Part shown: positions 2 to 58,102 of the stretch, piece by piece
Numbering within the stretch: the first letter of the stretch is position 1
How the letters are laid out: each line of letters starts with the position of its first letter
From: Candidatus Hydrothermales bacterium
GTDB taxonomy: Bacteria > Hydrothermota > Hydrothermia > Hydrothermales > JAJRUZ01
Direction of reading: 5' to 3'
Length of the DNA: 64,000 bases
Assembly (NCBI GenBank): GCA_039630575.1
Contig: JBCNUW010000009.1
Span: 1 to 64,000 of the forward strand
Position numbers and translations under genes: made by a program
The notes under the pieces: model-generated
What the model saw: the letters and a program-made list of their open reading frames with translations, nothing else
The model's database searches: none
What the model was told of the DNA's origin: nothing

Positions 2-1618
2 ACTCTCATAAGATATATAAGAGGGGTTGATTTTTCAAACTTAAGAAGAAGGACTCTTCCAGATGGTAGAGTTTGGAAATTGGGTGATATTATCTATTCA
101 ACCCCTCTTGTAGTTGGACCTCCAACTGAAAGATATGATCTTATTTATGGAGATGTCAGTTATAATGAATTTTATAGAGCTTATAAGAATAGGAGAACCG
201 TTGTTTATGTAGGAGCAAATGATGGGATGTTCCATGCCTTTAATTCAGGGAGACTAACAGAAACAGGAAATGATCTTTCACCATTACAGATAGATCCTGC
301 TGGTTATTCTATTGGAGATGAAATTTTTGCTTATATTCCTTTTAATCTTTTGCCTCATCTTAAGTGGTTACCAAGAAATGACTACTGCCATGTATACTAC
401 GTAGATTTGAAACCTTATCCCACAGATGTTAGGATATTTACTCCTGATCCTATTCATACAAACGGTTGGGGAACAGTAATTGTAGGAGGCTTTAGACTTG
501 GAGGAACTTTATATAATACTCCAACAAAGGTTTATTCCTCTGCTTTCTTTTTAGCAGATGTTACAAGACCTGAAAACATAACAATTTTATGGGAAAAAAG
601 ATTACCTGATGGATCCTATACTACCTCATTTCCAACAACATGTAAAGTTGGTAATAACTGGTTTTTGGTAGTTGGAACAGGTCCTACAAATTTAGCTCAT
701 GTGAACTCAAATCAAGCTCCAAAGATATATGTACTTGACTATAGAACAGGTCTAATTCTCAGAACCTTTACTTTACCAATCAATTCCTCCTTTGTAGGTG
801 ATATAATTTCAGTTGACTATGACCTTGACTATAATGTAGAGGTGCTTTACTTTGGAACAAATGTACTTGAAAATCCTACTTTGCCAAGATATGGTGGAAT
901 ACTTTATAAAATAAAAACAAACGATGATCCCAACCCTAACAATTGGGTGTTAGCACCAGTTTTTGATGCATCAGAACCTATTATTTCATCCCCTTCAGTT
1001 GGAATGGATAATAAAGGAAGATTATGGGTTTATTTTGGAACAGGTAGATTTTATACAAGGGATGACGCCAACTACTTAGAAACACAGTATCTTGTTGGAG
1101 TGAGGGACGAGGATGCTTACTATAATCTTAATAATCTTCTTGACGTAACCAATATAAGGGTATTTAGTCCTGAGAGTGTTTTTACACCTACAGGAGCAAT
1201 AATTTCCTTTAATCAACTTGAAAATATGGTCTCAACGACTTACAAGGGGTGGTATAGAAGACTTATTTTAGGAGAAAGATGTATTACAGCTTCAGCCCTT
1301 ATAGGAGGGGTTGCTTTATTTACTACTTATAAACCAGACTTTAGACCCTGTAGAGCAGGTGGTGAAGGTGTACTTTATGCTCTCTACTATTTAACAGGCA
1401 CAGCCTACTATAGGCCAATTATAGGAGAGTCTGGTACCGGTGAGAATTTACCTTCAATTTCTACAGGACCTGGAGCTCCTTCAGAACCTACAGTATATGT
1501 GGGTGCCGAGGGAGAAAAAGTTTTTGTTCAACTTGGAACAGGTGGTATCTTTGAAACTGAATCTCCTCTTCCTTTTTCACCACAAAGATCAAGAATTATC
1601 TTTTGGAAGGGTAGATGA
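2..1618 (+). CDS. pilY1: PilY1/PilC-like type IV pilus tip adhesin, C-terminal beta-propeller (5'-partial)
   Basis: The frame is open from position 2 (TLIRYIRG...WKLGDIIYSTP). Motifs VYVGANDGMFHAF, DxDxD-like DYDLDYNVEVLYFG and VYFGTGR are typical of the PilY1 C-terminus. Confidence 0.85.
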   Translation, partial: TLIRYIRGVDFSNLRRRTLPDGRVWKLGDIIYSTPLVVGPPTERYDLIYGDVSYNEFYRAYKNRRTVVYVGANDGMFHAFNSGRLTETGNDLSPLQIDPAGYSIGDEIFAYIPFNLLPHLKWLPRNDYCHVYYVDLKPYPTDVRIFTPDPIHTNGWGTVIVGGFRLGGTLYNTPTKVYSSAFFLADVTRPENITILWEKRLPDGSYTTSFPTTCKVGNNWFLVVGTGPTNLAHVNSNQAPKIYVLDYRTGLILRTFTLPINSSFVGDIISVDYDLDYNVEVLYFGTNVLENPTLPRYGGILYKIKTNDDPNPNNWVLAPVFDASEPIISSPSVGMDNKGRLWVYFGTGRFYTRDDANYLETQYLVGVRDEDAYYNLNNLLDVTNIRVFSPESVFTPTGAIISFNQLENMVSTTYKGWYRRLILGERCITASALIGGVALFTTYKPDFRPCRAGGEGVLYALYYLTGTAYYRPIIGESGTGENLPSISTGPGAPSEPTVYVGAEGEKVFVQLGTGGIFETESPLPFSPQRSRIIFWKGR

Positions 1619-1630
1619 TGAAAACAAAAG

Positions 1631-1641
1631 GGTTCAAATCC
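1631..1641 (+). promoter_or_regulatory. T-loop-like 5'UTR motif GGTTCAAATCC (copy 1), in a perfect AAAGGG/CCCTTT hairpin
   Basis: Lies 25 nt upstream of the ATG at 1667; no SD in between. Confidence 0.7.
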
Positions 1642-1666
1642 CTTTACAAAGTTTTAACATACTAAT

Positions 1667-1990
1667 ATGAAAAGATTTTTAATATTTTTTCTTTTAACCT
1701 TCTTTAATGGAACCCTTAAAGCAGATTGGGTTGAAGGAAGTGATACCCTTACGCTATATGAAGTCAAAGAAAACTTTTTTTATTTTGAAGAGTACATGAT
1801 TCCTTTTAAAGGAGACTATACTTTACCTACCCTTATCCAGTCTAAAAAGTTTATAAATAGGTCAAATGAACTTGAAATTAAACTACCCGCAAAAGTTTAT
1901 ATTAAATACCTCTTAAACGTAACAGGAGAAGAAGATATTAAATTCCATGAAATAAAAATTATTTCTTTTGAATATATAAAGAGATTGTAA
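1667..1990 (+). CDS. Small exported hypothetical protein
   Basis: 107 aa ORF with an N-terminal signal-peptide-like segment. Confidence 0.7.
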   Translation: MKRFLIFFLLTFFNGTLKADWVEGSDTLTLYEVKENFFYFEEYMIPFKGDYTLPTLIQSKKFINRSNELEIKLPAKVYIKYLLNVTGEEDIKFHEIKIISFEYIKRL

Positions 1991-2005
1991 ACTGATTTTT
2001 CTATT

Positions 2006-2890
2006 TTGATGATGAAATATTTAATTCTTTCAACTTTTTTATTTTTAGTTTTTTGCAAAAGGGAAGTAAAGAAAGAAAAGGGTGAGCTCCTTTTTATAGA
2101 ATTTGCAGAAATTAATAATAAAAAACCATGTGTAGGTGACGTTTTAGGCGTAAATTATATCTTAAAAGGGGAAACTAAAGAGGCAAATGTAATTGTTGAA
2201 TGGTATGTAAACGATAAAAAGATTTTTGAGGGTTTAGATTTTAAATTAGAAGATGTAAAAAAGAAAGATAAAATTCATGCAGTTTTAATTCCATCCTTTA
2301 AGGGAGTCAAGGGGAAACCCTATTTTACAGAGTCTATTTTTGTGTCTAACAGCTTACCTGTTGTTGAGAGTGCCTCTTTAGATCCAAGTTTTATATACTC
2401 AAATACAGAGAAGGTTAGAGTAGTTCCAAAAGGTTATGATCCCGACGGGGAAAAGATTAATTTTTTTGCAAGATGGAGAATTGGCAATTTTTATCCGAGT
2501 GATTCTTCATTAGAAATTTCTCTTAAAAATTTGAAAGAAGGAGATACAGTAGAGGTATTTGTCTATGCAAGAGATAGTGAATCCCGATCGTATAGGTCTT
2601 ACTCCCTCCAAACTGTGGTTCAGAATTCTCCACCACAGATATATAAAGAGGAATTCTTTATTAAAGAAAATAAAATTTTTGTAAAATTTTTTGCAAAAGA
2701 TCCTGATAATGATAATTTAATTCTTGAGTTAATTAATTCAAATATTAAACCACTTGAGATAAAAGATAATGAACTTACACTTATATTTCCATATGACCAG
2801 AAGATAAATGAACTCAAATTAGATGTAAAGGTTTTAGATACAAAAGGTAATTATATACTGAAAAACCTTCTTTTAAATATTAAAAGATAG
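2006..2890 (+). CDS. Putative lipoprotein with tandem Ig-like domains
   Basis: Hydrophobic N-terminus ending in Cys; recurring NSxP, DPDGE/DPDND and W-x-V-N motifs of Ig-like repeats. Confidence 0.65.
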   Translation: MMMKYLILSTFLFLVFCKREVKKEKGELLFIEFAEINNKKPCVGDVLGVNYILKGETKEANVIVEWYVNDKKIFEGLDFKLEDVKKKDKIHAVLIPSFKGVKGKPYFTESIFVSNSLPVVESASLDPSFIYSNTEKVRVVPKGYDPDGEKINFFARWRIGNFYPSDSSLEISLKNLKEGDTVEVFVYARDSESRSYRSYSLQTVVQNSPPQIYKEEFFIKENKIFVKFFAKDPDNDNLILELINSNIKPLEIKDNELTLIFPYDQKINELKLDVKVLDTKGNYILKNLLLNIKR

Positions 2891-2964
2891 GGGAATTTAA
2901 TTAAGTTATTTTGTTTTTATTTTCCCTTGTTTATCTATTTATGTTTATAAACTTAAATTAAACC

Positions 2965-4122
2965 TTAATGAAGTGCCTCTATTCCAGGTAGACTGCCTTT
3001 TTCTATAAATTCAAGTGAAGCACCACCACCTGTTGAAACGAAAGAAATTTTATTTTCTAATTTTTGTTTTTTAATTACCGTTACCGTTTCTCCGCCTCCA
3101 CAAAGAGAAAAGGCTCCCTTTAAAGTTACTTCTGCTATTTTCTTAGCCACTTCATATGTTCCCTTTGCAAAAGTTCTATTTTCAAAAACACCCATTGGTC
3201 CGTTCCAGAAAATAGTCTTTCCCTTTGAAATTTCCTCTTTAAATATCTGAATAGACCTTTCTCCAATATCATAACCTGCATAACCTTCTGGAACTTCTTC
3301 GCCTTCCGTATATTTTTTACTTTCTGGTGAGTCAGAGTATCTTGTGTCTACTGCAACAACAAGTTTCTCTTCTGGTAACTTTTTAACTTCATCAATAAAC
3401 TTTTCGTCAAGTATAGATTTTCCAATACTTTTTCCTTTTGCTTTCCAAAAAGTGAACATCATACCTCCACCTATTAAAATCTTATCACATTTATCAATAA
3501 GGGTTTTTATAACTCCAATTTTATCTTCTACCTTTGCACCGCCAAGTATAGCTATAAAAGGTTTCTCAGGATTTTCTGTTATTTTCTTTAAGTTATTAAT
3601 TTCTTTTTCAAGTAAAAAACCGGCATACTTTTCTTCGAAGAGTTTTGGCAATGTGTAAACTGAGGTATGTTTTCTGTGAGAAGCAGCAAAGGCTTCATTT
3701 ACATATATATCTGCCAGTTCCCTCCATTTTTTAGCAAGTTCAATATCGTCTTTTTCTTCATTTTCTTCAAATCTTGTATTTTCAATAAGCAAAACTTCTC
3801 CTTCTTTCATTTCGTTTATTATCTTTATAACATTTTCACCATGTAACTCTTCAGTGAATCTTACTTTTTCCTTTAATAGTCTTTTTAATTTCTTTACAAC
3901 TGGCTGTAGAGAAAATTCAGGACTCCTTTTACCTTTAGGTCTTCCGAGATGGCTGGCTAATATTATTTTTCCACCTCTTTCGATTAAAAATTTTATTGTT
4001 GGAATAGTTTCTTTTATCCTGGTATCATCAAGAATTTTTCCTTCCTTGATCGGAACATTAAAATCAACTCTTAAAAAAATTCTTTTACCTTTTATATCAC
4101 CAATTTGATTTAAACTTTTCAT
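2965..4122 (-). CDS. pgk: Phosphoglycerate kinase
   Basis: RVDFNVP, SHLGRPKG, GGAKVEDK, WNGPMGVFE, STGGGASLE; SD AAGGAG upstream. Confidence 0.98.
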   Translation of the reverse strand: MKSLNQIGDIKGKRIFLRVDFNVPIKEGKILDDTRIKETIPTIKFLIERGGKIILASHLGRPKGKRSPEFSLQPVVKKLKRLLKEKVRFTEELHGENVIKIINEMKEGEVLLIENTRFEENEEKDDIELAKKWRELADIYVNEAFAASHRKHTSVYTLPKLFEEKYAGFLLEKEINNLKKITENPEKPFIAILGGAKVEDKIGVIKTLIDKCDKILIGGGMMFTFWKAKGKSIGKSILDEKFIDEVKKLPEEKLVVAVDTRYSDSPESKKYTEGEEVPEGYAGYDIGERSIQIFKEEISKGKTIFWNGPMGVFENRTFAKGTYEVAKKIAEVTLKGAFSLCGGGETVTVIKKQKLENKISFVSTGGGASLEFIEKGSLPGIEALH

Positions 4123-4135
4123 TTATAACTCCTTT

Positions 4136-5146
4136 TTATTCCTTTTCAGCCATAAACTCAAGCAAATCAACTACTCTTACTGAATATCCCCATTCGTTAT
4201 CATACCAACCAGCAACTTTAACAAGATTTTCAACAGTTTCTGTAAGTGTAGCATCAAAGATACAAGAATGGGGATTACCTATAAAATCTGAAGAAACAAG
4301 TGGCTCATCACAATATTCAAGATACTTAGGCATTTCTTGAGATGCCTTTTTGAAAGCCTCATTTACATCTTCTTTTTTCACTTCCCTTTCAACTATAGCT
4401 GTAAAATCGCATAAGGATACAGTTGGTGTTGGAACTCTTATGGCAACAGCTTTCAATTTACCTTTCAGTTCGGGATAAACAAGTTCTATTGCTTCAGCAG
4501 CTCCTGTGGAAGTTGGAATTATGTTTAAGGCAGCTGCTCTTGCCCTTCTTAAATCCTTATGAATTTGATCTAAGATCCTCTGATCATTTGTATAAGAGTG
4601 AATTGTAGTCATTTCTCCTTTTTGAATTTTGAAATTTTCGTGAACGACCTTTACAAGAAAAGAAAAGCAATTTGTAGTACAAGAGGCGTTTGATATAACA
4701 AAATGTTTTTTAGGATCGTACATATTATCATTTATTCCAAGCACAATAGTAACATCTGGTTTTGTACCTTTTCCAGGAGCAGTTATCAAAACTCTTTTCG
4801 CTCCAGCATCTATATGGGCTTGAGCCTTTGTCCTGTCTGTAAAAGCACCAGTTGCTTCAACTACATAATCAATTTCAAGATCTTTCCATGGCAGTTTTAC
4901 CGGATCCTTCTCTGAGAAAGTAAGTATTTTTTTGTTATTAATTACAAATCCATCTTTTTCAGTTTTTATTTCTTCTTCTGCAATTCTAAAAATTGAATCA
5001 TACTTATAGAGATGAGCAAGGGATTGGCTATCTGCAAGGTCATTTATTGCCACGAATTCAAGTTTCTTTCTCTTTAAACCTTCCTTTAAGACTTGTCTTC
5101 CAATCCTTCCAAAACCATTTATAGCAATTTTTACTTTTTTCTTCAT
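4136..5146 (-). CDS. gap: Type I glyceraldehyde-3-phosphate dehydrogenase
   Basis: INGFGRIGR, SNASCTTNC, WYDNEWGYS. Confidence 0.98.
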   Translation of the reverse strand: MKKKVKIAINGFGRIGRQVLKEGLKRKKLEFVAINDLADSQSLAHLYKYDSIFRIAEEEIKTEKDGFVINNKKILTFSEKDPVKLPWKDLEIDYVVEATGAFTDRTKAQAHIDAGAKRVLITAPGKGTKPDVTIVLGINDNMYDPKKHFVISNASCTTNCFSFLVKVVHENFKIQKGEMTTIHSYTNDQRILDQIHKDLRRARAAALNIIPTSTGAAEAIELVYPELKGKLKAVAIRVPTPTVSLCDFTAIVEREVKKEDVNEAFKKASQEMPKYLEYCDEPLVSSDFIGNPHSCIFDATLTETVENLVKVAGWYDNEWGYSVRVVDLLEFMAEKE

Positions 5147-5167
5147 TTTTCACTTTAATTTTAATTG

Positions 5168-5178
5168 GGATTTGAACC
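5168..5178 (-). promoter_or_regulatory. T-loop-like 5'UTR motif GGTTCAAATCC (copy 2)
   Basis: Lies 21 nt upstream of the gap ATG and downstream of a minus-strand TATAAT; no SD. Confidence 0.7.
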
Positions 5179-5253
5179 TTTAAATGAAAGATTATTATAA
5201 CTTAACATTTTTTTGAAAACAAAATAGTAAATTGACATATAATATCTTAAGAA

Positions 5254-5883
5254 ATGAAAAAATTCCTTTTTATTTTTTTAATAATTTTTGGGGCATGTTC
5301 TTTTAAAATTTTTAAAAGAACTAAACCAGAGGAATTTGGTATTGAAAGCTATTTTGCTCAAGGTGTTTATTATTTTTATAAGGGTAAATATGAGAAAGCC
5401 AGGTTCTATTTTAATAAGGTTCTATTTTCAGGAGAGATAAGGGAGTATACTGATGATGTGCAGTTTTACATTGCTAAGTCTTATTTTTTAGAAAAGCAGT
5501 TTGAAACTGCCTCATCGGAATATAACTTTCTTTTAAATCAATTTCCAAATTCTGAGCATTTGGAAGAAGCTGAATTTGATATTTTAAAAATTGAAATTTT
5601 AAAGGTTTCTTCACCTTCACATGAGACTGGTGAACTTGAAAAAGTTATACCTAAAATAGATAATTTTTTAAAAAAATACCCTAATTCGAAATTTAGTGAG
5701 GAATTGCTTGGATTAAAAAATACTGTTTTAAACATTTTAGCTGAGAAGATTTACTCCATAGCAAGACTTTATGAAAATTTAAAAAAATATTATTCAGCTG
5801 AGATTTATTATAAAGAGTTAATAGATAAATATCCAGACACTATATGGGCAGAAAAGGCAAGAAAAAAAATTAATAAAAAATGA
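5254..5883 (+). CDS. bamD: Outer membrane protein assembly factor BamD-like TPR lipoprotein
   Basis: Lipobox FGAC, TPR repeats, xYPxS motifs, C-terminal LAEKIYSIARLY...SAEIYY...YPDT. Confidence 0.85.
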   Translation: MKKFLFIFLIIFGACSFKIFKRTKPEEFGIESYFAQGVYYFYKGKYEKARFYFNKVLFSGEIREYTDDVQFYIAKSYFLEKQFETASSEYNFLLNQFPNSEHLEEAEFDILKIEILKVSSPSHETGELEKVIPKIDNFLKKYPNSKFSEELLGLKNTVLNILAEKIYSIARLYENLKKYYSAEIYYKELIDKYPDTIWAEKARKKINKK

Positions 5884-6455
5884 AAAAAATAGGAATATTC
5901 GGTGGAGCCTTTGATCCACCTCATATAGGCCATTTCTTAATAGCTCAAGATGTTTATGAAAAATTAGAACTAAACGAATTGTATTTTCTTGTCTCATACA
6001 GACCGCCTCATAGGCAAACAAAGGCAGAATTCGAAGATAGATTGAAAATGGTAGAGCTTATGTTGTCTGGATCGCCTTTTTATGTTTCTGACTTTGAATC
6101 TAAGCTTAAATTTGCACCAACCTATACAGTTCTTGTTTTAAATGAATGGAAAAAAAGAAAAAAGGATGAGGAACTGTACTTCATAATGGGCTTAGATCAA
6201 TTTTTAAATTTAGACAAATGGTATGAATACCAAACACTTTTTGAACTTTCAAAAGTTGTGGTTTGTAAAAGACAAAAGTGTGAAATTAAGGAAATTGCTT
6301 GCTATAAGGAAAAGGTAATTTTTCTTGATACAAGAATTGTTGAACTTTCGTCAAAAGAAATAAGGGCTAGAATAAGAGAAGGTAAAAGTGTACATCTTAT
6401 GGTTCATCCTGAAGTTGAAAATTTTATAAATGAAAAAGGACTTTATTTAAAATGA
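5880..6455 (+). CDS. nadD: Nicotinate-nucleotide adenylyltransferase
   Basis: IGIFGGAFDPPHIGH, FIMGLD, SSKEIR. Confidence 0.95.
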   Translation: MKKIGIFGGAFDPPHIGHFLIAQDVYEKLELNELYFLVSYRPPHRQTKAEFEDRLKMVELMLSGSPFYVSDFESKLKFAPTYTVLVLNEWKKRKKDEELYFIMGLDQFLNLDKWYEYQTLFELSKVVVCKRQKCEIKEIACYKEKVIFLDTRIVELSSKEIRARIREGKSVHLMVHPEVENFINEKGLYLK

Positions 6456-10312: not shown

Positions 10313-10387
10313 TGGGCGGGCGAGGATTTGAACCTCGGACCTCCTGTATGTGAGACAGGCGTTCTAACCATGCTGAACTACCCGCCC
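10313..10387 (-). tRNA. tRNA-Val(CAC)
   Basis: GGGCGGG/CCCGCCC acceptor stem, anticodon arm CCTGT-CTCACAT-ACAGG, T-loop GGTTCAAATCC; CCA not encoded. Confidence 0.95.
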
Positions 10388-15003: not shown

Positions 15004-15075
15004 AGCGGGAGACGGGATTTGAACCCGCGACCCCTACCTTGGCAAGGTAGCGCTCTACCGCTGAGCTACTCCCGC
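15004..15075 (-). tRNA. tRNA-Gly(GCC)
   Basis: GCGGGAG/CTCCCGC acceptor stem, anticodon loop TTGCCAA, T-loop GGTTCAAATCC, discriminator U; no CCA. Confidence 0.96.
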
Positions 15076-17169: not shown

Positions 17170-17838
17170 TTAATATTTTAGAGCGTTTTTATGAATAAAG
17201 ACACCTTTTGAGGAAAATTTTATAGTTTGAGTTTTTTTAAATTCTTTTAATATTCTTGATACGCTTTCTCTTGAGCAGCCGACCATAGAGGCTATATCTT
17301 TTATTTTAAAATCTTTTTTAATAAATATATACTCTCCAATTTTTTCTCCCTCTTTTAAAGCTTTTTCTATAAAGAATCTTGCAACTTTGCCTGACAGATC
17401 TAAAAAAAATAAAGAGCTCATTTTTTCATTTGTTTTTCTTATTCTATGACCCATTTCCCTAATTATTGAAATGAGTATTTCAGGGTGTTTAATTAACTTA
17501 TATAAAAGATCTTCCTTCGAAAATATTGTTACTTTTGTGTTTTCCAGTGCTGTAACTCTTGCAGTTCTGTACTCTTCACCGAAGAAACCCAGTTCTCCAA
17601 AAAAATCACCTTCCTTTAAATTTGTGATAACAATTTCTTTTCCTTTATCAGAAAACAGTGAAACTTTTACTTCTCCAGAATTTATTATATAAAGAGAATC
17701 TCCTCTTTCTCCTTCATGAATTATTATATCCCCTTTTTTAAACTCTTTTTTTATTCCAAGTTTTTCGATTACTTTTTTTTCTTTTTTACTTAATTGGCTG
17801 AAAAGTTCTAACTTATTTGACGTAGTTGACTTTTTCAT
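17170..17838 (-). CDS. Crp/Fnr family transcriptional regulator
   Basis: cNMP-binding FFGELG..RTARV; HTH IASMVGCSRESVSR. Confidence 0.93.
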   Translation of the reverse strand: MKKSTTSNKLELFSQLSKKEKKVIEKLGIKKEFKKGDIIIHEGERGDSLYIINSGEVKVSLFSDKGKEIVITNLKEGDFFGELGFFGEEYRTARVTALENTKVTIFSKEDLLYKLIKHPEILISIIREMGHRIRKTNEKMSSLFFLDLSGKVARFFIEKALKEGEKIGEYIFIKKDFKIKDIASMVGCSRESVSRILKEFKKTQTIKFSSKGVFIHKNALKY

Positions 17839-29112: not shown

Positions 29113-29184
29113 TGGAGCCGGGGAGATTCGAACTCCCGACCCCCTGGTTGCAAACCAGGTGCTCTCCCACTGAGCTACGGCCCC
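29113..29184 (-). tRNA. tRNA-Ala(TGC)
   Basis: GGGGCCG/CGGCTCC acceptor stem with G3:U70, anticodon loop TTTGCAA; no CCA. Confidence 0.96.
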
Positions 29185-30145: not shown

Positions 30146-30218
30146 TGCCGGGGCCCAGAATCGAACTGGGGACACCGGGATTTTCAGTCCCGTGCTCTAC
30201 CGACTGAGCTACCCCGGC
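30146..30218 (-). tRNA. tRNA-Phe(GAA)
   Basis: GCCGGGG/CCCCGGC acceptor stem, anticodon loop CTGAAAA; CCA incomplete. Confidence 0.96.
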
Positions 30219-49183: not shown

Positions 49184-50278
49184 TTGAAAATTAAAAAAGC
49201 AATTTTCCTTAAAAGATTAAACAGATTCACCGTTCAATGTTATTCTGGAAATAGAAAATTGAATGCTTACCTTCCTAATCCTGGAAGGTTATGGGAACTT
49301 TTGATTCCAGGTAGAATTCTTTACTTGAAAAAGAATAGGGGTAATTTTAATTTTAAAGTTTTTGCTACTTTAAGAGAAAATGAACTTATATGTCTTGATA
49401 CTCATCATACAAATAATGTTGTAAAAGAAATTTTAAAAGAGGGGTTTATTAAAGATTTGAAAAGTTATAAATTAAAAGAGGAAGAAATCAGAATTGGTAA
49501 TAAAAGGATAGATTTTCTTCTTGAAAAGGGTGGAGATCTTTTTCCTCTTGAAGTAAAGTCATGCACACTTTATAATGATGGTATAGCAATGTTTCCCGAT
49601 GCGGTGACAGAAAGGGGTAGAAACCATGTTGAGTTAATTGCTAAATATAAAGGAATTATAATTTTTGTTGTTTACTTTTCCAAGGCTGAATATTTTTTAC
49701 CAGACTTTCATACAGATCCTTTGTTTTCAAGGACTTTATCAGAATATAGAAACAGTATTTTGATAAAGCCAATATCTATAAAACTAGATGAAGGCGGAAG
49801 TTTTAAGTTTATAAAAGAGCTTAAGATTCCATGGCATGTATATGATAGAGAGGGAAAAGATAAAGGAAGTTATATAATTTACGGAGAATTAAAAGAAGAT
49901 ATAACAATTAGGATTGGCGAGCTTGGAAGAAAATTTTTTGAAAAGGGATATTACCTTTATGTTGGTTCTGCGATGAATTCTTTAAGCAAAAGAGTCAAAA
50001 GACATTTGAAAAAAAATAAAAATGTAAAATGGCATATAGATTACCTTATCTCTTATTTTGAAAACATAAAACCCATAGAAATAAGGTCATCAGAGAAGAT
50101 TGAATGTGCAATTTCAAAAGAACTTGGAAGTATATATGAAAATGTTGAAAAGTTTGGATCCTCTGATTGTAAATGCAAAAGTCATCTTTATTTCTCTTTT
50201 AAAAATCCCTTCGAAGATGAAAGATTCATAGAAATTCTTTTAAAATATCGCATCAGTAGATTAAAGAATTTTATTTAA
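49184..50278 (+). CDS. sfsA: SfsA nuclease fused to a DUF123 (GIY-YIG/Uri) domain
   Basis: RLNRF, LPNPGRL, RIDF, EVKSCTL, FPDAVTERG; then GYYLYVGSA, RH, WHIDYL, FGSSDCKCKSHL. Confidence 0.88.
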   Translation: MKIKKAIFLKRLNRFTVQCYSGNRKLNAYLPNPGRLWELLIPGRILYLKKNRGNFNFKVFATLRENELICLDTHHTNNVVKEILKEGFIKDLKSYKLKEEEIRIGNKRIDFLLEKGGDLFPLEVKSCTLYNDGIAMFPDAVTERGRNHVELIAKYKGIIIFVVYFSKAEYFLPDFHTDPLFSRTLSEYRNSILIKPISIKLDEGGSFKFIKELKIPWHVYDREGKDKGSYIIYGELKEDITIRIGELGRKFFEKGYYLYVGSAMNSLSKRVKRHLKKNKNVKWHIDYLISYFENIKPIEIRSSEKIECAISKELGSIYENVEKFGSSDCKCKSHLYFSFKNPFEDERFIEILLKYRISRLKNFI

Positions 50279-52543: not shown

Positions 52544-53085
52544 AATAATGATTTTAATTATAATTCTTTATGATTCTGAAATTGCAATTAGAAATTGATA
52601 TATTTTTGAGGCCAAAAGATATTAAGTTTTTAAAAATTCGTCATATACCTTAAAAAATTTAACTATATCCTTTATAATTCTCATAGAAAAATTGAATTTA
52701 AGATTCATACGTGCACCTGAGTACTTGCTTTTTAAGACAAAGCAGATGGAGGAGAAAATAGAAGATGAATATTTTAATAAAGTACCTATTATAAGCCTTA
52801 CTGAGAAAGAGTCCTATTAAAAAAACCTACTTATTTTATTCCCATATGGAATAAGTATGAAGGAAAAAGATGTGGAGTAAGCTCTTTAAAACATTGATTG
52901 AAATAATTGAAATTATAAAAATATTCATCCTTTAAAATTTGAGTGAAAAAACACAAAATGAATTTGAAAACTTAAGAATGCCCCTTGATTTTCCTGCTAT
53001 AAATCACATCTTAAAAGAAACGATTTTTAAAATATGTACCATTTGAAAATTTTTTTTAAAACAACTTATGAATTATAATAAAATA

Positions 53086-56000
53086 ATGAAGTTTAAAATA
53101 TGTGCAAGATGTGGGTTTAAAAATGTATATGAAGCGAAATATTGTGCTGGTTGCGGAACAAAGTTAGAAGAGGTAGAATTAGAGGGGGAAATAAAAAGAT
53201 GCTGTGTTTCTTTTCTTGAAATTTCAAATTACGAAGAGTTAAAAGATGAATTTATACTTGAAGAGGAATTTAAGGATTTCTTATTAATCCTCTCCCAAGA
53301 AATAAATTCCTCTGTTGAAAAATATGAAGGTAAAGTTGGTAAATTTATGTGGCCAGAGATTATGATATGGTTTGGTGCTCCAAAGATAGTTGAAAATCCC
53401 TATGAAAGGGTTATCCTATCAATATTTGATATCAAAAATAAGATAAAAGAGATATCTAATATAAAGAATGTAAATATATCTATAAAGGCAGGGGTACACT
53501 ATGGAGAGGCAGTTCTATGCCTTTTAGGAAACAAAGACTATAAAGAATATACCTTAATAGGGGACACCGTAAATACAGCTCAAAGAGTTAAGGAGGTAGC
53601 AGGAGAAGATGAAATAGTCATAACAGAAGCCCTTTCAAAAAAGCTTTCAAAAATTTTTGAATTAAAAGAAAAAGGGAAATTTTTACTTAAAGGCAAAAAA
53701 GAAGAAATAAATTTATATAAAGTTATTGAACCAAAAAAAGAAAGAGGAAAAATAAGAGGAATTGAAGGACTTTATTCAGAAATGGTAGGAAGAGAAAAAG
53801 AAATGGAAGAAGCTCTTTTTCATTTTGAAAAATTTTTAATAGATAAAAAGCTTAAGGGAATTATCATAATGGGAGAGCCGGGAATTGGTAAATCCCGCTT
53901 TCTTTTTGAATTCATTAAAAATATTGAAAAATATAATGTTAAAGTTTATGAAACAAAGTTTTTACCTTTTGGGCAAACTGTCTATTTTCCTTTTGAAAGT
54001 TTATTAAAGAAAATTATAGAAATAAAAGAAGACGATAATAGAGAAAATATAAAGAATAGAATTGATGAATTCGTTAATACTATTTTTCCAAAAGAAAGAC
54101 TAAAAGAAATAAAAATTCTTGAAGTTTTGTATGATTTTTTTGGAATTGAAAGTTTAAAGGAAAAATTTGAATCAAGTATTTTTCAAAACATTTTATTTTA
54201 TACATTCAAGACAATTTTTGAAAAACTATCAAAAGAAGGATTACTTTTCTGTATCGAAGATTTTCATTGGGCTGACCCAAGCTCATTATCTTTATTACAT
54301 TATCTAATAGAGTTTTTAAGAGAAAGAGAAATATTCATAGTTATTGTATCAAGACCTCTTTATGAAAAGGGAGAAATATTTAAATTTTTAGAGCATTTAA
54401 AAGAAGAGAAAGATTTTAAAGAAATAAGTTTAAAAGAACTTAAAGAAGAGGAAACAAATCTCTTAATAGAAAACCTTTTAAATATTGCAGTAATTAAACC
54501 TTATTTGAAAGAAATTATATATAAAAAGTCAGAAGGGAACCCCCTTTATATTGAAGAGATACTTAAAATTTTAATTGAAAAGGGATTTTTTGAAAAAGTT
54601 AAGGGGAAGTGGGTTCAAATAAAAGATATAAGTGAAATAGAAATTCCAGATACACTTGAAGAAATAATCCTCTCACGAGTTGATAACTTACCTTTAATGG
54701 AAAAGGTAGTATTACAAAGAGCGAGCGTAATTGGTAGAAATTTTTGGGATATAATTTTGCAGGAGCTTGTTGAAAGACCTGTCTTTTACTATCTTCAAAA
54801 TCTTGAAAAACTTGATTTTATAAGACATAAGGGAGAAGCAGGAATATTTATTGGAATTGAATATATATTTAAACACTATCTGATAAGAGAGGCAATTTAT
54901 AGAAGCATAATAGAGGAGATAAAAAAGAAAGTACATTTAAAAGTTGCAGAAACACTTGAAAGAATTATATTACCTGAGCATATAAGAAATTATTATAAGT
55001 CACTTGCTTATCACTTTGAAAGGGGTGAAAATTTTGAAAAGTCAGCTTTTTATTATTTAGAAAACGGAAAAATTTTAAAAGATAAAAGTCTTTATTATGA
55101 GGCTCTTGAAGATTTTGAAAAAGTTAAAGAGATTTCTGATAAGTACAATGTTTTAAAAGAAAAAAAATTTGAAATAAATTTAAATCTTGCAGAAATTCTT
55201 TCAAGATTAGGTAAAAAAGACAAAGCTATGGATGTTTATAATGAAGTTTTTAATTTCGTGAAAAATGAGGAAGAAGAATATAACTTATATTATTCTCTGT
55301 CGGATCATTATCAAAGTATTAGTGATTATAAAAGCTCAGCCTATTTTTTAGAAAAAGCTTCTTCTGTTGCAAAAGATAATATAAAAAAAATAAAAGTTTT
55401 ACTCTTCAGTTCATGGTTAAATTATTTAACAGGAGCTCTTGATCTTGCGATTAATGACCTAAATAATGCCTTTGAAATTTTAAATAAGGAACAAATTGAT
55501 TCAGATAGAAAGAATTCATTTCTAATAAGTATTTACGATCGTTTTGCTATATATAAGATGGATGAAGGTAAACTTGATGAGGCGATTGAGGATTTTGAAA
55601 GGGCAATTGAGCTTTCAGAGAAAATCCAAAAAATTGAAAGAATAGGGACTCTTTATAACAATTTAGGAGATACTTTAAGGTGTGCTGGAAAGATAGAAAA
55701 GGCGGAAGAAATATTATTAAAGGCAAAGGAATGGGCAGAGAAAACAGGAGACATGCTTTTACTTGCAATTGTCCATAACAACCTTGGAGAACTTTATAAT
55801 GATATAGGTATGAATGATTTAGCAGAAGAAAAATTTAAATTTTATTTAGAATTAAATAAAAAAATTAGAAATAGACTCGGTGATGGTTATGGCAATTTAG
55901 GTCTTGGAAGAATATATATGGATAAAAATGATTTAAAAAATGCAGAAGAAAGATTTTTAGAAGCTTTAAAGATTTTTGAAGAAGTAAAAAGTAAAAGAAT

Positions 56001-56430
56001 GTTAAATTTTGGAAAATGTGATTTTGTTTTATTGAAAATTGCTCAGAGGAAATTTGAAGAAGCTGAAAGTTTAATATACGAAATTTTAAGTTATGCAGTT
56101 TCCACTTCTTTAGATGAATTAATTTATAGAAGTTATGTCTTAAAAATACTACTTTTATGGAAGAAATACAGTGAAGATACTCAAAAACTTTACGAAATTT
56201 TTGATATTGAGAGAGAAGCAAGAAAGTTTGAGAAAAATGTTTTTAACTTTATTTATACATTGAAATTAAGAGAAACTCTTTTTATGGTATCGCAGAAATT
56301 AGAGAGGGAGACTAAAAAATATTATGAGGAATTTAAAAATTTTTTAGATGAAATCATTTTGAATATGAATGAGGAAAAGAGAAATGCTTTTGTAAAAAAA
56401 TACGGTTTTTCTGAGTTTTTGAATGAATGA
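53086..56430 (+). CDS. Zn-ribbon + class III cyclase (C2-like half) + STAND AAA ATPase + TPR protein
   Basis: CxxC...CxxC, YTLIGDTVNTAQR, Walker A GEPGIGKS, Walker B IEDFHWAD, GNPLYIEE, TPRs. Start is ATG 53086 (6 nt after TATAAT) or 53068. Confidence 0.9.
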   Translation: MKFKICARCGFKNVYEAKYCAGCGTKLEEVELEGEIKRCCVSFLEISNYEELKDEFILEEEFKDFLLILSQEINSSVEKYEGKVGKFMWPEIMIWFGAPKIVENPYERVILSIFDIKNKIKEISNIKNVNISIKAGVHYGEAVLCLLGNKDYKEYTLIGDTVNTAQRVKEVAGEDEIVITEALSKKLSKIFELKEKGKFLLKGKKEEINLYKVIEPKKERGKIRGIEGLYSEMVGREKEMEEALFHFEKFLIDKKLKGIIIMGEPGIGKSRFLFEFIKNIEKYNVKVYETKFLPFGQTVYFPFESLLKKIIEIKEDDNRENIKNRIDEFVNTIFPKERLKEIKILEVLYDFFGIESLKEKFESSIFQNILFYTFKTIFEKLSKEGLLFCIEDFHWADPSSLSLLHYLIEFLREREIFIVIVSRPLYEKGEIFKFLEHLKEEKDFKEISLKELKEEETNLLIENLLNIAVIKPYLKEIIYKKSEGNPLYIEEILKILIEKGFFEKVKGKWVQIKDISEIEIPDTLEEIILSRVDNLPLMEKVVLQRASVIGRNFWDIILQELVERPVFYYLQNLEKLDFIRHKGEAGIFIGIEYIFKHYLIREAIYRSIIEEIKKKVHLKVAETLERIILPEHIRNYYKSLAYHFERGENFEKSAFYYLENGKILKDKSLYYEALEDFEKVKEISDKYNVLKEKKFEINLNLAEILSRLGKKDKAMDVYNEVFNFVKNEEEEYNLYYSLSDHYQSISDYKSSAYFLEKASSVAKDNIKKIKVLLFSSWLNYLTGALDLAINDLNNAFEILNKEQIDSDRKNSFLISIYDRFAIYKMDEGKLDEAIEDFERAIELSEKIQKIERIGTLYNNLGDTLRCAGKIEKAEEILLKAKEWAEKTGDMLLLAIVHNNLGELYNDIGMNDLAEEKFKFYLELNKKIRNRLGDGYGNLGLGRIYMDKNDLKNAEERFLEALKIFEEVKSKRMLNFGKCDFVLLKIAQRKFEEAESLIYEILSYAVSTSLDELIYRSYVLKILLLWKKYSEDTQKLYEIFDIEREARKFEKNVFNFIYTLKLRETLFMVSQKLERETKKYYEEFKNFLDEIILNMNEEKRNAFVKKYGFSEFLNE

Positions 56431-58102
56431 GAATATTTTGAAAAAAAGTTTAGTTTTATTTTTTAGTGACCTTGTTGGTTATACAAGTTTATCAGAGAAG
56501 AGAAAGCCTGAAGAAGTTTTTTTAATTTTAAAAGAAATTTATAAGATTTGTGAAGAAATAATAAAAAAAAATGGTGGAAAAGTTGTTTCATATATAGGAG
56601 ATGCAATTTTTGCAGTGTTTGGATATCCAGAGGTTTCCCCAAGAGATTTTGAAAAAATGATTATATCCTGTGTACAAATAAACGAAATTTTGAAAAAAAA
56701 CTTTAATATCTTGATAAAATTTTCCGTCCATTTTGATGAGGTAGAAACTGATATAGATGAGACAGGAAATTTAATAGTTTCAGGTAAGGGAGTAGATTTT
56801 GTAAAAGATATAAATAAATTTTCTTCATCTGAAAAAATTTTGGTTTCTGAAAATGTTTATAAAATTTTAAAAGAAAAATATCCTTTTGGAGTTTTAAAGA
56901 AAATAAATTTATATAATAGAGATTTCTATGTTTATGAGATTAATTTGAAAGAAATTGAAGAAAAAGATACTTACATTTCAAGTTTAATAGAAATTGAAGA
57001 AAAAAAGAAAAGATATTTTGAGAGTTACAAAACTTCTCACAGTTTTGAAGAAATTTTTGAAGCTGGAATAGGTCTTATTTATTTTTTCATAAGAGAGGGT
57101 AATTTTTACAGTGCTTACAGTATGATACAGGAATTGATGAAAGTGGTAAAGGATAATAGTTTAGAAAAGGTAAAGTTGTTAAATTCTTTAGCATGGCTAT
57201 ATTATATTACAGGGAGAATAAACGAAGGTAAAAATAAAATAGAGGAAGCTCTGAAATTATTTGAAATTATTGATGAAAATGAAGAAAGCAAAAAGGTTTT
57301 TTTAATGACAAAAAATTTTTCAGGGCTTTTTTTCTATAGACTAGGCGATTATTTTTCTGCAAAGTTAAATTATACGGAATGTATAAAAAAAGCAAAGATT
57401 ATAGGAGGAGAAAGGTTTTTTACTCCTTATTTAACAAATCTCGGAAATACATATTTTCAGATGGGTGAATTTTTGAAATCAGAAGCCTGTCATAGATATT
57501 CGTATAAATTAAAAGAGAAGAACAAAATGTATATCAATTTACCTGCAACATTAATTTCCTATGCAAACTTGTTGATTGAAATGGGAAATTTTAAAGAAGC
57601 AGAAAAATTGTTAGAAAAAGCTGAAAAAATAATTAACGATTATTCTTTAAGAATTCAACAAATTTTTTATTATTATACTCTTGGTAATTTTTTCTTTTTG
57701 AAAGAAAATGGTGGTATAGAATATTATCAAAGAGCTCTTTCTACCTGTTCAGAAATTAATTATAGCTTTCCTGTCCCTATGGTACTGGCAGGCATAGGAA
57801 TATATAATTCCTATCATTTAAAGAATAAGGAAAGAACTTTCAAAATAATTGAGAAAGCACTTAATCTTTCATCTGAGCAGAATAATTTTGAGTATTTCAT
57901 TCTTTCAAAGTTGGCTCTTTTATACGCTCTTGTAAGATTTAATGAAAAATTTGATGAAGAACTAATTAATATAAACCAGATGATTTGTAAAAAACATCAC
58001 TTAAGATTCATACCAGAGTTAAAAGAAATTTCAAAAATGGATGACAATTATAGAGATTTTAAAATTTTAAAGTACAAAAAAAATTTAATCATAAAGCTTT
58101 AA
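56423..58102 (+). CDS. Class III cyclase (C1-like half) + TPR protein
   Basis: FFSDLVGYTSLSE, YIGDAIFAVFG, followed by TPR repeats; overlaps the upstream stop (ATGAATGA). Confidence 0.85.
   Translation: MNENILKKSLVLFFSDLVGYTSLSEKRKPEEVFLILKEIYKICEEIIKKNGGKVVSYIGDAIFAVFGYPEVSPRDFEKMIISCVQINEILKKNFNILIKFSVHFDEVETDIDETGNLIVSGKGVDFVKDINKFSSSEKILVSENVYKILKEKYPFGVLKKINLYNRDFYVYEINLKEIEEKDTYISSLIEIEEKKKRYFESYKTSHSFEEIFEAGIGLIYFFIREGNFYSAYSMIQELMKVVKDNSLEKVKLLNSLAWLYYITGRINEGKNKIEEALKLFEIIDENEESKKVFLMTKNFSGLFFYRLGDYFSAKLNYTECIKKAKIIGGERFFTPYLTNLGNTYFQMGEFLKSEACHRYSYKLKEKNKMYINLPATLISYANLLIEMGNFKEAEKLLEKAEKIINDYSLRIQQIFYYYTLGNFFFLKENGGIEYYQRALSTCSEINYSFPVPMVLAGIGIYNSYHLKNKERTFKIIEKALNLSSEQNNFEYFILSKLALLYALVRFNEKFDEELININQMICKKHHLRFIPELKEISKMDDNYRDFKILKYKKNLIIKL

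Follow-up and report, generated by a model that had tools for sequence, protein, structure and literature searches.

Two overlapping genes of a Candidatus Hydrothermales bacterium carry complementary halves of a class III cyclase site and may form a single-site heterodimer with a STAND switch

The active site of class III nucleotide cyclases is assembled from two subunits: one supplies the pair of metal-binding aspartates and the triphosphate loop, and the other supplies the base-specifying pair, the Asn/Arg pair and the phosphate-binding lysine. Complementary half-sites of this kind are textbook knowledge for the eukaryotic membrane adenylyl cyclases, soluble guanylyl cyclase (sGC) and soluble adenylyl cyclase (sAC). 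Here we describe two adjacent genes, A and B, in a 64,000-nucleotide (nt) stretch of a Candidatus Hydrothermales bacterium (contig JBCNUW010000009.1, positions 1 to 64,000; hereafter the window), whose cyclase domains have each lost the half of the catalytic set that the other retains. We lean, with moderate confidence, toward a reading in which A and B pair as the subunits of a heterodimeric class III nucleotide cyclase with a single site, likeliest an adenylyl cyclase, tied to a STAND switch. According to a recent review, bacterial class III adenylyl cyclases homodimerise and pseudo-heterodimers originated in early eukaryotes (PMC9552081). In the full-text literature covered we came across no report of a bacterial class III cyclase whose complementary halves lie on two genes; most subscription reviews fall outside that scope, and an actinobacterial survey (PMC2447327) falls within it by its abstract only.

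Several described systems resemble the A/B locus in part. In sAC (ADCY10), the Asp pair comes from one cyclase domain and K, N and R from the other, and downstream of these domains lies a STAND-type NTPase region; no nucleotide tested told full-length human sAC from its truncated form (PMC12802110). The C1/C2 domains of the mammalian membrane adenylyl cyclases and the alpha/beta subunits of sGC likewise bring together complementary halves into one active site and one degenerate pseudo-site, and in sGC each half is encoded by a gene of its own (PMC3591389). Among bacteria, the clade A Pycsar cyclases (PaPycC, PDB 6YII) carry two consecutive cyclase domains per chain (PMC11224242). In the homodimeric adenylyl cyclase CyaB of P. 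aeruginosa (PDB 3r5g), every chain carries all of the catalytic residues. The A and B genes and their domains are laid out in the window as follows.

53068..56430, + strand: gene A, 1120 residues, with a zinc ribbon, a C2-like half-site cyclase domain, an AAA_16/STAND NTPase and TPR repeats (from the open reading frame (ORF), Pfam and orthologues)
53089..53160, + strand: zinc ribbon of A, about residues 8-31, with C12, C15, C26 and C29 (CxxC...CxxC in the translation)
53191..53718, + strand: cyclase domain of A, residues 42-217 (Pfam Guanylate_cyc, 56.0 bits)
53782..54336, + strand: AAA_16 (STAND-type) NTPase of A, residues 239-423 (Pfam, 52.4 bits against a cut-off of 32.6)
54985..56100, + strand: TPR region of A, about residues 640-1011 (TPR_12, 86.6 bits; TPR_MalT over 831-1011, 45.8 bits)
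56423..56430, + strand: A/B overlap of 8 nt, ATGAATGA, with the ATG of B within the last codons of A (read from the sequence)
56423..58102, + strand: gene B, 559 residues, with a C1-like half-site cyclase domain followed by TPR repeats (from the ORF, Pfam and orthologues)
56450..56911, + strand: cyclase domain of B, residues 10-163 (Pfam Guanylate_cyc, 48.5 bits)
57158..57643, + strand: TPR region of B, about residues 246-407 (TPR_12, 49.2 bits; TPR_2, 40.9 bits)

Both cyclase domains exceed the gathering score of the Pfam Guanylate_cyc family (PF00211, 21.9 bits), and both were also recovered by a six-frame search of the genome with PF00211. The locus had been delimited as 53068..56935 in the initial annotation; its start is correct, and its end takes in only the cyclase domain of B, a gene that runs on to 58102. 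The zinc ribbon, the AAA_16/STAND NTPase and the TPR repeats of A, as well as the TPR repeats of B, had been missed. The zinc ribbon takes up residues 1-35 of A and can be aligned with those of canonical paralogues, and the corresponding families PF13240/PF12773 are present in related proteins. In the NTPase domain, the Walker A motif is GEPGIGKS (residues 269-276), in which G272, G274 and K275 are invariant over a 32-row alignment, and the motif was found in 5/5 of the full-length A orthologues checked. With AAA_16 above its cut-off, an intact Walker A motif and repeats downstream, A has the hallmarks of a STAND protein. No NTPase domain was found in B by Pfam, and its TPR region weakly resembles that of A (A 752-880 versus B 226-354, 27% identity, E 7e-5, BLASTP). 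A candidate assignment of A as a TOMM kinase/cyclase fusion (TIGR03903) was rejected, as A reaches 189.8 bits against an NCBIfam cut-off of 705.75, with only the cyclase-NTPase part covered and the kinase domain absent.

We mapped the catalytic residues by phmmer alignments to CyaB, which is the best solved-structure match of both A (5.9e-13) and B (5.6e-9), and by alignment with three canonical domains of the same genome. A script check of the translations found every residue number given in the initial annotation to be correct. In A, the first metal-binding Asp is replaced by E51 (CyaB FFSDIRGFT opposite A SFLEISNYE) and the second by P96, with the Lys kept as K92 (CyaB KFVGD opposite A KFMWP). 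The earlier statement that A lost both metal-binding aspartates is thus right in that both positions are changed; the first change is a conservative Asp-to-Glu substitution in which the charge is not deleted. A retains T162, N169 and R173 (DTVNTAQR; YTIIGREVNLASR opposite YTLIGDTVNTAQR) and the KGK motif (208-210), which is missing from B. The cyclase domain of B, for its part, retains D16 within an intact FxDxxGYT loop (FFSDLVGYT) and D60 (SYIGD), 44 residues apart, and has replaced the Lys with S56, the Thr with I118, the Asn with D125 and the Arg with D129 (IVSGKGVDFVKD opposite TIIGREVNLASR). In the order of the two metal-binding Asp, Lys, Thr, Asn and Arg, the six-residue code is E,P,K,T,N,R in A, D,D,S,I,D,D in B and D,D,K,T,N,R in the canonical paralogues C22, C16 and C4. 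The alignment to CyaB, a check that had been proposed together with the pair, therefore leaves A without the Asp pair and B without K, T, N and R: neither chain holds a full catalytic set, and the two together have the complementary half-sites of a heterodimeric class III cyclase. Because K92 and T162 equal the Lys and Thr at the base positions of CyaB, the likely substrate is ATP, and to this extent the earlier proposal of an ATP-specific site stands.

The loss reaches beyond these six positions. We scored the 22 columns in which 22 canonical domains show at least 90% conservation, and the A family retains 9/10 columns of the C-terminal half, KGK included, versus 6/12 of the N-terminal half. 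The B family retains 9/12 N-terminal columns, among them the entire FxDxxG(F/Y)T loop, versus 1/10 of the C-terminal half. Leaving out the five columns by which a domain was defined as canonical gives 7/8 C-terminal and 5/9 N-terminal columns for A, and 7/9 N-terminal and 1/8 C-terminal columns for B. The reciprocal degeneration spans whole half-domains and exceeds chance. A complex prediction for A 36-228 with B 1-180, each with its own alignment, scored 0.01 against a mark of 0.32 and carries no weight either way on binding.

The pattern is conserved in both families. For B, eight further clusters at 53-67% identity were found among 13 matches in a collection of 5.8 billion proteins, and the next match stands at 25%. 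In the 9-row alignment of B, D16, Y57-I58-G59, D60 and D125 do not vary, position 56 holds S or T and position 129 holds D or E; this D,D,S/T,x,D,D/E pattern is present in the eight further protein clusters and in six loci. A has three orthologue clusters (P0015-P0017) with 73-85% identity over residues 1-260, after which come canonical proteins at no more than 37%; over their full length (1116-1120 residues) the A orthologues are 70-78% identical. The residues E,P,K,T,N,R are found in all rows of A, namely the window, L031, L032, L045 and the three clusters, and W95-P96 is kept as well. The reciprocal half-site loss proposed at the outset is therefore real and recurs in every orthologue of A and B that we examined. 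The pairwise ratio of non-synonymous to synonymous substitution rates (dN/dS) is 0.13-0.20 for B; by this ratio, and by the 70-78% full-length identity of A, both genes are under purifying selection.

The linkage of the two genes was compared across the six loci that hold B.

Window: upstream A full, 1120 residues; 8-nt overlap, AATGAATGA
L031: upstream A full, 1116 residues; 8-nt overlap, AATGAATGA
L032 (genome G003): upstream A full, 1112 residues; 4-nt overlap, GTGA
L030: upstream A cut by the contig end, 805 residues visible; 8-nt overlap, AATGAATGA
L008 (genome G008): upstream A cut by the contig end, 655 residues visible; 8-nt overlap, AATGAATGA
L029: three fragments of A only; junction sequence retained

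An orthologue of A thus lies directly 5' of B with a stop/start overlap in 5/6 of these loci, which bears out the gene overlap noted earlier. In the window the junction reads ...TTGAATGAATGAG..., and no terminator-like site was found between A and B in a promoter/terminator scan. The overlap suggests coupled translation. We also considered whether A and B are one gene broken by a frameshift; this was rejected, as the junction is kept in five loci and the resulting order, cyclase-STAND-TPR-cyclase-TPR, would be unnatural for a fusion. In the sixth locus (L029, a 47-kb metagenome contig), the remnants of A amount to 38, 79 and 51 nt, 86-92% identical to A of L031, with a 67-residue remnant ORF, and B is intact at 553 residues. 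The region 5429..6000 of L029 is a deletion scar, and the 730-residue gene that precedes A in L031 is also gone there. In L032 (G003:C251), a 140-residue ORF at 124..543 (+) just downstream of B, on the opposite strand to it, encodes a cyclase fragment with D, D and K kept and the C-terminal half missing; it has no counterpart downstream of B in the window.

A search for complementary pairs in related genomes, also suggested with the first description, found them both as fused chains and as separate genes. PF00211 matched in 24/61 related genomes (104 match rows), and we fetched 20 regions for their paired, partial or low-scoring matches, a non-random choice; the 68 domain hits in the fetched loci were classed with a cyclase-domain profile whose own alignment included A and B. 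Two cyclase domains in one chain were found in 10 ORFs of 900-1327 residues from eight genomes (L033, L034, L035, L040-L044, L046 and L052). Their first domain has D,D in 10/10 ORFs; of the remaining four key residues most are gone, with one of them kept in some (K in L041 and L042, N in L034 and L040). Their second domain has T or A plus N and R in 10/10; both Asp are absent in the seven ORFs aligned there, save L046, which lacks one. By the itemised listing, the Lys of the second domain is kept in L033 and L046, is S or R in L034, L040 and L043 and is unaligned in the other five; our overall count of fused ORFs with K kept is three, of which the listing names these two. The codes are DDGFRQ + YEKTNR in L033 and DDRFYR + HDKTNR in L046. 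L033 (G005:C68, 1587..4316, - strand), the one fused ORF that was scanned in full, has Guanylate_cyc twice and then AAA_16, and its best PDB match is human ADCY10 (E 7e-30, in two collinear stretches). These domains and this match identify true bacterial sAC-type C1-C2-STAND proteins in the same class.

Complementary halves on separate genes occur a second time in the same genome, on contig C1 (L053, C1:104000-112000, - strand), in a set of three genes that overlap or lie 3 nt apart. The first (5816..6451) encodes a 211-residue zinc-ribbon cyclase domain with D,D kept and Q, I, S and Y at the other four positions; the second (3610..5844) encodes a 744-residue HEAT-like protein; the third (664..3606) encodes a 980-residue zinc-ribbon/degenerate cyclase/STAND/TPR protein with K, T, N and R kept (...TALGDCVNTAQR...) and the N-terminal metal part lost. 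Like A/B, this set consists of separate genes with complementary half-sites (D,D only and K,T,N,R only), with a zinc ribbon on both. It differs in that the Asp-bearing subunit comes first, the HEAT-like protein lies in between and the small subunit is without TPR repeats, and it belongs to a different paralogous family, A being 27% identical to the 980-residue protein.

Other arrangements of the same parts were seen alongside. In L036 (G006:C4), an A-like cyclase-STAND gene that is cut by the contig start (2..1936, +) keeps T, N and R, and a convergent gene (2548..3102, -) encodes a stand-alone 185-residue cyclase domain with D,D only (DDNSDY); the two genes may form a further split pair, though not a co-transcribed one. 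L037-L039 hold lone, degenerate A-like cyclase-STAND proteins without an obvious partner. In the same genome as the window, L054 (C5:39000-45000, about 1340-3900, +) is a broken two-domain cyclase-STAND gene, with 20 stops in its tblastn match to A; pieces of a domain of the D,D type, of one that ends in VNISARL and of AAA_16 lie in different frames. Probably this is a pseudogene derived from the fused type, which is intact in G001 (L042) and G003 (L041). A cluster from other metagenomes (P0024; 1102 residues, nine members, 93-kb contig) is a cyclase-STAND-TPR protein with Glu and Lys at the metal positions and with K, T, N and R kept, so A-like half-site proteins exist outside the A family.

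Set against the described systems, A/B differs from sAC in that the two cyclase domains lie on two proteins, where sAC-type proteins have C1 and C2 in one chain and then STAND. In addition, the order is reversed, with the C2-like domain and the STAND part first and the C1-like domain second, and the C1-like subunit B has a TPR tail of its own. A also matches CyaB better than ADCY10 (5.9e-13 versus about 4e-5). The mammalian membrane adenylyl cyclases and sGC are eukaryotic, have membrane anchors or H-NOX/PAS/coiled-coil parts, lack STAND, zinc ribbon and operon, and are similar to A/B at the domain level only (E 1e-4 to 1e-7). The initial annotation had called the pair C1/C2-type; the complementary half-sites agree with this name, but it holds as an analogy only, as neither the tree nor the best matches give A/B a special kinship to the fused C1/C2 proteins. 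The clade A Pycsar cyclases are fused, make cyclic pyrimidine products, come with a paired effector gene and are without STAND and TPR. CyaB has the Lys/Thr base positions in common with A, and differs in its complete chains. By sequence, A (33-37%) and B (36-38%, cyclase domain) come closest to the canonical zinc-ribbon-cyclase-AAA_16-TPR proteins ('class 3 adenylate cyclase/predicted ATPase/TPR'), such as C22 and C16, whose architecture is that of A. They carry D,D,K,T,N,R in one chain, in contrast to A without the metal half and B without the other half; with all six residues in each chain, these paralogues can act as two-site homodimers.

As to the origin of the pair, a maximum-likelihood tree of 54 cyclase domains places A (four rows, support 100/100, stem 1.38) and B (six rows) in separate long-stemmed clades, both within an unresolved cluster with canonical domains and apart from the fused C2-like and C1-like domains; the backbone of this tree is weak, with 16/51 branches open, and long-branch warnings apply. 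The canonical zinc-ribbon-cyclase-AAA_16-TPR proteins are also the nearest long relatives of B. Among proteins of 980-2795 residues, neither a fused A-B form nor a long fused version of B turned up, which is weak evidence. Fission of a fused sAC-type gene was considered as the source of A and B and is unsupported, given the reversed gene order, the separate clades and best matches that are canonical single-domain proteins, with the weak backbone of the tree kept in mind. The simplest reading is that a canonical cyclase-STAND gene was duplicated and that the copies lost complementary halves, in parallel to the fused lineage.

The domains, the residue pattern, the extent to which relatives keep it, the linkage of the genes and the analogues in fused and in split form are all observed, and from them we infer the pairing of A with B, its activity, its substrate and its regulation. 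In the proposed heterodimer, the cyclase domain of B would supply the metal-binding D16 and D60 and the triphosphate loop, and that of A would supply K92 and T162 for the base, N169 and R173 for the transition state and the lysine of KGK. A head-to-tail A:B dimer would then hold one complete site and one dead pseudo-site, the latter made of E51, W95 and P96 of A with S56, D125 and D129 of B. An A:A dimer would be without a metal site, and a B:B dimer would be without base or transition-state residues. The intact NTPase and the TPR sensor of A suggest ligand- and NTP-driven assembly; the two would time the pairing of the cyclase domains by oligomerisation, as in other STAND proteins, and the TPR repeats of B may dock B onto A. 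The stop/start overlap would provide coupled synthesis of the two subunits, and the product could be read by the five cNMP-binding proteins of the genome.

Several observations weigh against this heterodimer, or at least against its exclusiveness. B is rare and patchy: orthologues are present in 3/272 species genomes of the phylum, namely G000, G003 of the same genus and G008 of the same order and another family, and in 1/4 of the other genomes of the genus. (One of the remaining three, G002, has an A that is 98% identical to that of the window and is cut after 222 residues by the contig end; that B was not found there is uninformative, since it may be unassembled.) In L029, B persists without an adjacent A, and selection on it does not look relaxed since that loss: the codon changes specific to its lineage number 44 synonymous and 27 non-synonymous, against 34:23 and 34:29 in the A-bearing sisters L030 and L031. 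The genome also encodes possible alternative partners, in the three canonical domains that carry the complete six-residue set and in the second half-site pair. A scan of neighbouring domains found no effector or receptor gene adjoining A/B. The pairing had been described as obligate, and this is not supported; A:B pairing may be non-exclusive, with B, and perhaps A, also pairing with other cyclase domains of the cell.

Carried further, the same observations would fit an account in which A and B are no dedicated pair at all and act as modulatory half-site subunits, each heterodimerising with C22, C16, the C4 cyclase or the second half-site pair to give dimers with one active site instead of two, thereby tuning or gating the partner enzymes. 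Besides the surviving B of L029 and the three complete canonical domains, the identities agree with such mixing, being about as high to C22 (54/171 aligned positions for A, 56/167 for B) as between A and B (37/166), and mixed STAND oligomers are conceivable because A shares the architecture of C22 and C16. We nevertheless consider this account unlikely, since adjacency and the stop/start overlap are kept in 5/6 loci, the complementarity of A and B is exact and the fused relatives join a D,D-only domain with a T-or-A, N, R domain in a single chain. A reading in which both domains are dead, their pattern is a leftover of descent and their role is non-catalytic (nucleotide sensing, oligomerisation or scaffolding in a STAND hub) seems to us more doubtful again. 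Each chain alone does lack half of the catalytic set, the C-terminal half of B retains only 1/10 canonical columns, and partnerless degenerate cyclase-STAND proteins such as L037-L039 exist among the relatives. However, what A and B retain are exactly the catalytic residues of opposite halves, and these have outlasted long stems (1.38 changes per column for A) at about 30% identity to canonical domains. B has kept the whole FxDxxGYT triphosphate loop together with the YIGDA motif, and the same complementarity recurs independently in fused and in split form.

A role in anti-phage defence, in which an Avs-like STAND sensor would switch on a Pycsar-like cyclase and so raise a cyclic nucleotide alarm, is very improbable. 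The cyclase-domain matches in PADLOC are to PycC only (A 1.2e-9, B 3.2e-11), with one weak TPR match in addition for A; they are weak and partial, as they would be for any class III domain. According to a STAND survey (PMC13581612), defence often involves STAND NTPases that carry TPR sensors; the word 'cyclase' is absent from the main text of that survey. The patchy distribution among relatives would suit a defence module. A Pycsar system has PycC beside a cyclic-nucleotide-binding effector, and the A/B locus has no such adjoining gene; its neighbours are of the housekeeping type, and the K and T at the base positions resemble those of the adenylyl cyclase CyaB. A heterodimeric cyclase formed by A and B remains our preferred reading of the locus.

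The surroundings of the genes are as follows. Between A and the divergent penicillin-amidase gene lies an intergenic region of 524 nt (52544..53067, + strand), the presumed promoter region of the A-B operon, in which no ORF of at least 60 residues was found. The count of promoter-like sites (42 versus 33.7 +/- 5.8 in shuffles) comes from AT-rich DNA and is uninformative; the G+C content of the window is 23-36%. The neighbours of A/B encode an SfsA-DUF123 protein, a penicillin amidase, DinB_2, an unassigned protein and a LolA-like protein, of which the first (49184-50278, +) is a 364-residue fusion of SfsA (OB and nuclease domain) with DUF123. An Rfam scan of the whole window gave four tRNAs only, all on the - strand (10313-10387, 15004-15075, 29113-29184 and 30146-30218), with no match near A/B or in 52544..53067. 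The cNMP_binding domain has five matches in the genome, one of them inside the window (17503-17748, -, 88.3 bits) in a 225-residue open frame; this protein is a possible reader of the cyclase product. A search of sequencing runs gave three DNA runs of one study, labelled hot springs metagenome, and no RNA run.

A broader and more tentative picture, which we put forward as a doubtful extension of the heterodimer reading, would have the hot-spring WOR-3 lineage keep three designs of one cyclase-STAND machine in parallel: homodimers that carry the complete six-residue set, split pairs on two genes (in this genome at least two, independent of each other) and fused C1-C2-STAND proteins as true homologues of eukaryotic sAC. 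A/B would then be a free-standing bacterial example of the step from homodimer to pseudo-heterodimer. The residues that replace the catalytic ones in the dead site are themselves conserved (E51, W95 and P96 of A; S/T56, D125 and D/E129 of B), and within this picture, and just as tentatively, the dead site would be an allosteric pocket like the bicarbonate and forskolin sites of the animal enzymes.

In summary, the reciprocal half-site pair formed by A and B is real, conserved and, as far as its sequences can be interpreted, open to a mechanistic explanation, and it is not demonstrably obligate. If A and B proved inactive together, the finding would reduce to two pseudo-enzymes and would be ordinary. 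If the heterodimer is true, a conserved bacterial two-gene half-site pair would contradict the homodimer-only view of the bacterial enzymes, especially beside the fused sAC-type homologues of the clade, and bacteria would have evolved the sharing of work between cyclase subunits more than once. The A/B pair would then offer a small, thermostable and genetically separable model for the assembly of a single-site cyclase dimer, for the control of a cyclase by a STAND protein and for the dead pseudo-site as a regulatory pocket.

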